The position numbers were made by a program. This document shows, in pieces, positions 3,001-6,000 of a stretch of 39,501 nt of DNA. Position 1 is the stretch's first letter. Every line of letters begins with the position of its first letter. Source of the stretch: Bdellovibrionota bacterium (lineage in GTDB: Bacteria > Bdellovibrionota_C > UBA2361 > JBIKWN01); contig JBIKWN010000018.1 of assembly GCA_044356295.1 (NCBI GenBank), positions 1 through 39,501 of the forward strand, in the 5' to 3' direction.

Positions 3001-6000
3001 GAGTTCAAGTAACGCTAAAAATCCAGAAATAACAGACGCGCGGTTTGATTTATCAGTAACTAATCTTTCAAATGAAATCGGCTCTTTAATTGTTGATAAC
3101 ATATCAACAATACTCATCATGCGATCCACAATAGATACAGAATCAACAGTAATTGTAAAAAGCGGACCTTGTAACTTATTTTTCTCGAGAACTTTTTTGA
3201 AAGCTTTTGCTAAAAGAAGCGGTTCATGATTTTTTAGTTCAGCAGGAAGAGGAGTAATACCATCAAACAAAACCTTATTCTCAAAAACATCGAGTCCAAG
3301 AATATCGCGCTCTGAAAGCTTCATCGCCCCATCTTTATAAATAGCAGCTTCGCGGATTCGCTCTAGTAGCACTTGATGCGGGTCAACCATTGTACCGTCT
3401 TCATCGGGAACAAGTTCAACTGGTTCATTTAAAAGAATACTCGCTTTAATAGAAAGCAAGGTTGATGCAATAACCAGATACTCCCCCGCTATTTCCAGAT
3501 CCAGGTGCTTCATATTTTCAAGGCACGCAAAATACTGCGAAGTGATCTGATAAAGAGAGAGCTTTTCAATCGGAAGCTCGTTCTTTTTAACTAAATGCAA
3601 AAGAAGATCGATTGGACCATCAAAGCTGTCTAATCGAACTTCAAAGAAATGACTGGTTGATTCTGGGGTGGCACTCACAGGTTTAAACTACTTGAACTAT
3701 TGGTTTTTGTCTATCCGTGAACCGATACTAGCATAACTTAGAATCTTTATCCCCCTTTCCCGTGACCGTAGGCGTGAGCGTGAGCGAAAAAATCAAAAAA
3801 ACAAGCAACTCTCACCAAATTTTATCGAATACCATAATATGTTTAGTCACGAACGTCTTGATGTCTATCATCGATCATTAGAATTGATGGATATGCTAAT
3901 CCCAATAGTAAAAGCTATCCCAAAAGGAAATAGAGAATTAGTAGACCAACTAAAAAGAGCAAGTATTTCGTTGGTTCTTAACATAGCTGAAGGGGCTGGA
4001 AAATCAGCGATTGACGACAAAAAACGATTTTACTCGATAGCGAGAGGTTCTACTTTAGAATGTGCTGCAATACTGGATTTATTACTCCCTGGGGTATTTT
4101 AAATGATGAGACTATAGCGATGGTAAAGAATAAACTTCTTCAGATTGCTTCAATGCTTTCGAAGCTAATTCTTAGATAGTGATTGGTCACCCTCAAGCCT
4201 ACGGCTACTGTCTTCAAATGAAGAATATTACCCCCGTGAACCTGACCTTGAGCGTGAGCTTGAGCTTAAATTATCTGGGTCACGCTCACGCCTACGCTCA
4301 AGGTCACGGGGTAGAAATACCTTAACTTAATGACTAACCCCCCTGCATCCGGTACATACTCAAAAAAACCGCAGCCGCCTGACCAACATTTAATGAATCC
4401 ACTACTCCATGCTGACTCAAATAAATCTGAGCATCAGCCTCTTTTGCAATCAATGCCTGCACCCCATCCGATTCACCACCAAGAACAATCACAGTTTTTT
4501 CAGAAAATTTATATGAATAAGCATCAACCGCAGTATCAGAAATCATTGTAGCCACAATCTGAAACCCAGCTTTTCGAAGTCGCGTAAGAGATTCTCGAAG
4601 ATTCGAAACAACAGCGTGCGGAGCAAACTGCAAAGCTCCAGCACTAACAGAATTCACCGCATCAGTTATCGGAGCACTCCGATTTTTTGACCAAACAGTA
4701 CAAAGCGCTCCAAATGAATCAGCAGCACGAAGAATCGAACCTAAATTTTGCGGGTCTTGCACACCATCGAGTGCTAAAATGACACCTTCATCACAAGAAA
4801 AAGCAAGCTCTTCTAACTGCGATAAATCAAGTGGAGTATTTGGAATTACCTCTGCAACAAATCCTTGGTGATGTCTCGCAATCCTACTTAATTCATCAAA
4901 TCTAACTACTTCCGTCCTAGCTTTCTTAGATTCAACTAATGACAGTAATTCTTTCCCAGTTTTATCCATCCCCTCAGCTTTTTCAGAGACTTTGATACAG
5001 ATAACTCTTTCAGGAGAATTCAGCAAAAGTTGGCGCACAGCATTCCTACCACCAACAAATGAGGTTTTAGCTTTTGGGGTAGCAACTGACTTAACAGGCT
5101 GGGAATCTTTGTAATTTTTATGGTGCCTCATTTTGGGGCTTTTGAACTCTCGTTTATTGCAGTACAACAATTTAGAGGATATCAAAAATCAGGTTCTTTG
5201 CATCTAAACCTCTAGAAAATATTGCGATTTAACGATTTATGGCTACCCCTGCTTCCAAATTTAGCTTCAACCAAACCCCAAGTGGACCAAAACCGCTGAT
5301 AATTCAGTGCCCTTCGTGCAGTACGAAGTTTGCTCTCTCTTCAGAGGCAATTACTGGGTCGCCTGCTCCAAAATTTCACTGCTCACGGTGCGACACAATT
5401 TTCTCCCAGGAAGTTCAACCGTATGAAGATCATCTAATACAAGAAGCTCCTCAAGCTGAGTCTAATTTTAATTACACCCAAACCGATAGATTCGAAGAAG
5501 CACATCACCAGATTGAAGCTTCAATGGAGCCGCATAAAGCAGAAACATCGCTAAACTATAACGACCCAATTGCTGCCGACTCTTTTGATTTTTCTTTTGA
5601 CGAAGATAGCGAAAAAATATTTGCAAGTTTTGATTCAGGAATTGGAGACGATTCACACTCAGAGATATCAGTTGCAAAGTTTGATGATGAGCCGATGGGG
5701 TATGGATCTCTAGTACGAGAGCAAGTAGCTCTACACGATCCACTTTCCACCTCCGAGAGCATTCCACTTTTTCAAAGAATTAAAATCCCAACAAAATATA
5801 AAGCCCTCGCCTATCTTACTGCCCCGTGCATTATTTTTCTTTTCTTTGCTTCTTTCATTGCTCTTGTAAGTTCAACAGCTCCATCGGTTGTAGCTTCTGC
5901 AGCGAACCTTATCTCTTCAGAAAAAACAGTCGTAGCACCTCGTGATATATTTGTTAAAAATACAAAGATAAAAAGAATCGCACTTGATTCTGGTGATATG

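Follow-up and report, generated by a model that had tools for sequence, protein, structure and literature searches.

Inverted hexamer arms around PF05635 four-helix-bundle genes: a module resembling rRNA intervening sequences outside rRNA, with dispersed gene-less relatives

Is a small four-helix-bundle protein the partner of a dispersed family of hexamer-array repeats, and if so, in what sense of the word? The question arises from a locus in a 39,501-nucleotide stretch of DNA from a Bdellovibrionota bacterium (hereafter the window; contig JBIKWN010000018.1, positions 1 to 39,501). A preliminary description had placed a gene of this type between two inverted arms of the repeat family and had likened the arrangement to the tie between GxxExxY genes and a class of 9-mer repeats. 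The protein family concerned, PF05635, is large and includes solved structures; to our knowledge it has no known function.

The gene lies in a recent insertion within an operon (Table 1). Alignment to a genome of the same genus (G002), whose ScpA is 90% identical, shows rlmB and scpA only 39 bases apart, without the 620-bp insertion, and puts the insertion point just before the last rlmB codon. The junction is short too in most other relatives that have both genes in the locus. No target duplication could be recognised in the empty-site alignment with G002, and no left terminal repeat of the insertion was found. Several candidates were set aside: a 7-base repeat (3734-3740 and 4323-4329) falls inside the insertion as defined by the empty site and cannot be its target duplication; a supposed decayed left terminal repeat ahead of the upstream arm scored 2, within the range of shuffles; and joints skipping 3787-4283, which might have represented an excised site, are other copies of the repeat, with short sides and different letters between. 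A genome of the same order has its own, independent cassette of a four-helix-bundle gene (L014/L091, G011:C12:4998-5249), with a different motif, about 1 kb downstream of scpA and antisense. Elsewhere in the window, two ATPase-like ORFs (12395-14857) each have, on both flanks, copies of a further short palindromic repeat family in inverted orientation, and a DUF4160-DUF2442 gene pair (6368-6833) is putatively toxin-antitoxin-like.

The identity of the gene is clear. The ORF starting at 3839 scores 62.9 bits against PF05635 (cut-off 33.8) and 55.2 against TIGR02436 (cut-off 24), the match spanning the first three quarters of the model. A one-base frameshift at about 4080-4095 brings the first frame to a stop at 4100-4102, and the remainder continues in another frame to the stop at 4177-4179; the gene is one base short of encoding a 113-residue protein, and helix 4 is lost from this copy. 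Contigs of two sequencing runs from two studies, X1 (3300-4305; possibly the source sample) and X2 (3848-4305), show no differences from the window, so the frameshift is not an assembly error. The window copy is a pseudogene, and the gene is dead. Both the profile scores and the two-study contigs agree with the earlier assignment to the 23S_rRNA_IVP family with a frameshift near the end.

The bracketing arms had been only half correctly identified. The upstream arm stands, whereas the downstream arm named at 4283 is partnered not with it but with the left arm of a hairpin inside a separate MITE, 103 of whose 133 bases are identical to those of an intact MITE at C67:39697-39829. The gene's own partner is instead a decayed arm that starts 5 bases past its stop codon and scores 13.1 bits (10 such windows occur among 5.9 million reversed-control windows). 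Complementary termini enclosing the ORF are present in these two arms, in decayed form.

Table 1. Features of the insertion and its neighbourhood (positions in the window)
Feature	Position	Strand	Remarks
scpA	2863-3678	-	operon neighbour downstream; next come scpB and a pseudouridine synthase-like ORF
Former last codon and stop of rlmB	~3711-3716		on the far side of the insertion
Insertion, 620 bp	3717-4336	.	at the last rlmB codons; ends uncertain by a few bases
Upstream hexamer arm	3759-3788	+	roughly five C-N-T-R-R-S units; start codon 50 bases further on
Four-helix-bundle gene	3839-4179	+	PF05635/TIGR02436 profile match; antisense to the operon
Decayed downstream arm	4185-4205	-	inverted relative to the upstream arm; complementarity 89% over 18 bases
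Decayed MITE	4206-4337	.	IS4-type ends around a gene-less hexamer hairpin; end remnants ~4206-4223 and ~4321-4337
MITE hairpin, left arm	4233-4268	+	pairs with 4275-4310
MITE hairpin, right arm	4275-4310	-	the arm described earlier as '4283'
rlmB-type 23S rRNA methyltransferase	4334-5185	-	present stop codon supplied by the end of the insertion

The repeat family itself is real. A position-weight scan at a threshold of at least 16 bits detected 133 arms in 82 elements, rather than the 69 elements counted before, against a single window in the reversed-sequence control. The elements comprise 51 inward-facing doublets and 31 single arms, and 72 of the 133 arms have five units. Gene-less elements are found in all three kinds of spacer, tandem (36), convergent (14) and divergent (13), and are excluded from none, and arms on both sides flank only 2 of the 2430 genes of this genome. 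The pattern of the family's own motif finds 0-2 matches in each of 40 relatives; a few hairpins occur in the same-genus genomes G001 and G002 (62% and 86% complete), which gave no PF05635 match, and we do not read this as absence. Repeat families nest here: 9-mer and 6-mer arms abut on contigs C4, C23 and C44, and MITEs sit inside other palindromes. Two ordinary genes, at G000:C44:4733-6037 and C107:1791-2558, are flanked left and right by hexamer elements and would form potential composite units. The one GxxExxY (PF13366) gene (L007, G000:C30:12549-12990) lies between perfect inverted 9-mer arms, of which the genome has 94, and as a matter of anatomy the proposed likeness between the two gene-repeat pairs holds. 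RAYT-like genes were considered as mobilisers of the hexamer hairpins and rejected: no hexamer arm was found within 900 bases of any of the four PF01797 loci of this genome.

A second four-helix-bundle gene, C21:390-737, is intact and, as had been described, is preceded by a hexamer hairpin of another motif; there is none downstream, and within this genome the motif occurs only in that hairpin. The predicted structure of its product has four helices (pLDDT 96.5) and matches two PF05635 structures, 2GSC (TM 0.89) and 2RLD (TM 0.81), both five-chain entries. It also resembles Avd (4DWL; TM 0.77, E 0.03) at 13% sequence identity; a profile search gave no match to Avd at the sequence level.

How general is the association? 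A fetch with peptide words, among them LNIAEGTG, by which the sample is biased, yielded 79 loci; with further loci added, and others dropped for short flanks, duplication or lack of a query match, 87 distinct loci had enough flank for analysis. When the 200 upstream bases were aligned locally with the downstream flank (score at least 14), inverted arms were found at 50 of the 87 loci, as opposed to 11 direct, 8 reversed and 7 complemented matches. The same score was reached by none of 96 other genes of these loci and by 15 of the 2430 genes in this genome. The inverted excess reported earlier is thus reproduced with our own scoring, but direct repeats number 11 and not 3; six of these 11 belong to a 13-locus Bacteroidota/WOR-1 clade with duplicated hairpins on its flanks. 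No arms were scored at 37 of the 87 loci; outside two arm-less clades, arms are present at 48 of 67. One operon position accounts for 21 of the loci, and kin are not independent; grouping by shared neighbours gives 56 contexts, 31 of them mostly armed.

Pairs of arms taken from different loci seldom cross-match (181 of 2450). Period 6 was found in 46 of 48 scorable arrays, and 42 of the 46 period-6 arrays keep C-N-T or the complementary A-N-G (the next best pair is kept in 28). AT-rich and GC-rich arms obey this one spacing rule, which answers the worry that low-complexity sequence inflates the scores. Motif types track protein clades across phyla in a 79-row tree that has few columns and many open forks; the CGT type, for instance, occurs in several phyla at a local GC of 0.40-0.71. 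Because kin share labels, the match between motif and clade is not proof of co-evolution.

Some clades have arrangements of their own. Short PF05635 proteins of about 100 residues form a clade with up to 43 matches per genome, in which genes stand as divergent head-to-head pairs around a central hairpin, without hexamer arms (0 of 7 loci armed; the arrangement was seen at L093, L094, L102, L105, L106, L110 and L111, in G010, G013, G031, G006 and G016); the L111 pair is flanked by a long direct repeat. Members of the Bacteroidota/WOR-1 clade (such as L068, L071, L076 and L079; 2 of 13 armed) often lie behind tRNA-like genes with the same hairpin on both sides, in tandem arrays at L076 and L079; the units look heptameric. 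The operon position shared by 21 cassettes (L021, L035, L052, L054, L064 and others) is in Ignavibacteria and is one that we take, from the protein ends, to be nuoD-nuoE; the arms there reach from the preceding stop codon as far as the start codon that follows.

Four motif patterns were counted, as overlapping matches and not as elements, in 25 genomes chosen for their PF05635 genes (1-22 matches each). The CGTRRG type gave 68 matches in this genome, 155 in G047 and 0-6 in the other 23; the AAGTTY type, 13-197 in five Ignavibacteria-like genomes (G057-G061) and 0-4 in the other 20; the ACTTAC type, 6-23 in four Verrucomicrobia (G052-G055) and 0-3 elsewhere. The CGTGHW type is less tidy: it is abundant in G043 (251), G045 (143) and G046 (87) and occurs in the Verrucomicrobia G052-G055 (10-59), while its counts in G041 and G042 are close to those of the control and G044 has none, even though the arm of that genome is of this type. 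Each motif is thus abundant mainly where the gene's arms carry it, and this links the gene to the repeat class. Gene-less doublets were seen in sequence stretches of G043, G045 and G061; those of G043 share flanks with the gene cassette, and those of G061 are oriented opposite to the cassette arms.

What moves these elements is a separate matter. In this genome, 33 of the 82 elements have an 18-base terminal repeat outside their arms, a type that we label IS4 on the strength of a PF01609 match and the duplication length; 49 lack it. Ten of the 18 complete end pairs have a 10-11-bp duplication with at most one mismatch, and one IS4-ended element has a clean empty site in G002; no such duplication is seen at the window copy. 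In other phyla the same end delimits elements of 1.4 kb that contain a PF01609 transposase (26.8 bits, cut-off 23). Among 127 loci with this end (L145-L271, L356), 40 are elements shorter than about 400 bases, 28 of these with a target duplication; across phyla, the small ones contain unrelated hairpins (9-mer, heptamer, GTAG-type and others), and in the same-genus G001 it is a 9-mer hairpin that is wrapped. Since it surrounds unrelated hairpin families in different phyla, the 18-bp end is a second layer on the repeats. A different end is represented once here, at C124:19937-20221, where two arms lie inside ISL3-type ends with an 8-bp duplication. In G043, whole gene-plus-arms cassettes of 593-599 bp have sharp ISL3-type ends, which match the end of a PF01610 fragment in that genome, and three of four full-length copies have an exact 8-bp duplication. 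The present assembly, which is 93.6% complete, yielded neither an IS4 nor an ISL3 transposase. As to elements without IS ends, the empty-site comparison covered 816 kb of the 2.5 Mb of G002; of five further sites aligned, four were too divergent for borders to be drawn, and the one at C59, a MITE, was clean. Gene loci have an end nearby in 1 of 87 cases for each type, and a scan of them for exact terminal inverted repeats plus duplications gave 5 matches in 87, all palindromic or weak. With the IS4-type end lacking from 49 of 82 elements and both end types nearly absent from the gene loci, borrowed ends account for some of the spread and not for the primary one. Where movement can be traced, the transposon ends that the elements have borrowed, and not the four-helix-bundle protein, seem to be responsible.

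These results bear on what "partner" may mean. The protein could be the hairpins' dedicated mobiliser, comparable to RAYT in its relation to REPINs; it would act through some novel chemistry or would, like Avd, serve as a cofactor and bring in a reverse transcriptase (RT) in trans to copy the arm-bounded RNA. The motif-matched gene-less families, the strong conservation of the protein and its Avd fold would all suit such a role, as would the 49 elements without IS4-type ends, the want of arms at the four PF01797 loci and the single RT fragment of this genome, at C126. We nonetheless think it unlikely: the motif found in 82 elements is that of a dead gene, and no dispersed family goes with the intact gene on C21; no RT adjoins the gene, and the insertions that look datable bear IS ends and duplications. 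Nor do the available parts of the Avd literature assign that protein a catalytic role, Avd being situated about 40 Å from the RT active site (10.1101/2023.10.23.563531). The link that the preliminary description drew between gene and repeat holds, and more strongly than had been shown there: motif follows clade, and motif-matched gene-less arrays cluster in those genomes whose gene bears the motif. Partnership in the RAYT sense is weakened by the abundance of a dead gene's motif, and further by the IS4- and ISL3-type ends as the traceable marks, by the 37 of 87 loci without arms and by the finding that the arm originally named belongs to a MITE.

The arms might alternatively act as RNA, the stem looping the gene out of the operon transcript for RNase III and the module being kept for mRNA processing or stability. 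There is a precedent in Coxiella's intervening sequence (IVS), which has a 28-bp terminal stem and which RNase III cleaves in vitro (PMC4990558). Half of the armed loci (25 of 50) are co-oriented with both neighbours, in several loci the arms begin at the stop codon upstream and end at the start codon that comes next, one position has been kept in 21 loci, and the folded antisense transcript of the window pairs the upstream arm with the decayed downstream one. Set against this are the antisense orientation of the window gene, a fold of the whole region no better than that of shuffles (z -1.2) and the occurrence of gene-less elements in tandem, convergent and divergent spacers alike; the spread of the family would also be left unexplained, and we regard this reading as improbable. 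More improbable still is mere coincidence, with gene and repeats landing independently in the same hot-spot spacers or low-complexity arrays inflating the scores. It is true that repeat families nest in this genome and that the local downstream array turned out to be a separate MITE. However, the excess is specific to one orientation (50 inverted against 8 reversed and 7 complemented, with controls at 0 of 96), arms enclose only 2 of 2430 genes, the motifs agree with the tree of the protein, and whole cassettes have been copied as units in G043, so that this explanation is already largely refuted.

The association of gene and repeat is solid and general: it constitutes a module like the rRNA IVS, outside rRNA, with a dispersed gene-less family. 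The account that we favour, and consider on balance probable, is that such modules and their gene-less relatives are spread by borrowed transposases, with an Avd-like protein that probably binds the arms. The gene and its two inverted hexamer arms would form one unit, like an ORF-bearing 23S rRNA IVS placed between protein genes. Gene-less hairpins would be the same module without the gene; arms and flanks are shared, and the direction of descent is what we infer. Both would spread at least in part as cargo between IS ends, as the IS4-type and ISL3-type ends and their duplications indicate, the transposases presumably being supplied in trans. The protein is probably a pentamer of the Avd fold and would most likely bind the arms as RNA or single-stranded DNA; from the fold, the conserved spacing and the clade-specific motifs, it may read the triplet C-N-T/A-N-G every six bases. 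A ring that reads a triplet at fixed spacing is reminiscent of TRAP and Hfq. The notion of five units for the five protomers is a weak one, for arms in other loci have from 3 to 8 or more units. At the window locus, the module would have entered at the stop codon of rlmB once this lineage had parted from G002. Its downstream arm now adjoins a MITE belonging to the same repeat family, and the gene is dead.

One could go further and envision PF05635 proteins as the cognate factors of a widespread, undescribed REPIN-like class without a transposase of its own. A ring-shaped Avd-like pentamer reading A-N-G/C-N-T every six bases would be needed for protection, copying or insertion of module and hairpins, and each protein clade would have its own hexamer (or heptamer) dialect. 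We find this rather doubtful as a whole; were it true, rRNA intervening sequences would be just one landing site of the class. A role of the protein is plausible. More immediately, the clade-specific repeat around each gene provides a concrete candidate ligand and ties PF05635 to dispersed hairpins. The window locus adds a site that is empty in G002, a gene that has died while its repeat family thrives, and evidence of hairpins captured by IS ends, and so separates the link between gene and repeat from the question of the mover.

As the preliminary description had indicated, our literature searches, which reached open main texts, gave no description of a link between these genes and repeats outside rRNA and showed it only within 23S rRNA, although lists of this kind may exist in supplements. 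Several known systems share part of the picture. In REPIN-RAYT systems, TIRtrons and TIRYT, as outlined in PMC3733652, a gene lies in inverted repeats of which gene-less copies are scattered through the same genome. The same trait is seen here in the 51 gene-less inverted doublets among the 82 elements, but the gene is not an HUH (Y1) transposase and the arms are tandem hexamers, not GTAG/CGTC palindromes; the available part of that text on TIRtrons has no mention of helix, hexamer, S23 or GxxExxY. The Avd protein of diversity-generating retroelements (DGRs; 4DWL, 8UB7) shares the four-helix fold (TM 0.77), and PF05635 structures likewise have five chains; the DGR complex described in 10.1101/2023.10.23.563531 has five Avd protomers holding one RNA stem-loop by flipped-out bases. 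The present protein differs in its low identity (13%) and lack of a profile match. Beside the window gene, whose neighbours are rlmB and scpA, there is no RT, template or variable repeat, the only RT match being the fragment at C126. MITEs and mobile insertion cassettes such as Nezha, with ISNpu3 ends, are short, have IS-derived terminal repeats and target duplications, and occur at filled and empty sites in hosts whose assembly lacks the transposase, so far as PMC3184786 describes them. These traits recur here, with target duplications at some of the complete end pairs; in contrast to them, the 18-bp end wraps unrelated hairpins in different phyla, and most gene cassettes are without such ends.

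A further close parallel is the 23S rRNA IVS (S23p/PF05635) of Coxiella burnetii and Leptospira. Passages of PMC4990558 describe, for C. burnetii, the 28-bp stem, tandem heptamers before the ORF and in vitro cleavage by RNase III, and note that the origin of ORF-bearing rRNA IVS has been open since the 1990s. Protein family, complementary termini, short tandem repeats beside the ORF, sporadic distribution and an open mechanism of mobility are common to both (PMC4990558). Unlike these elements, the window module lies between rlmB and scpA, not in an rRNA gene, with its ORF antisense, and it has hexamer arms, dozens of gene-less relatives and a history of capture by IS ends.
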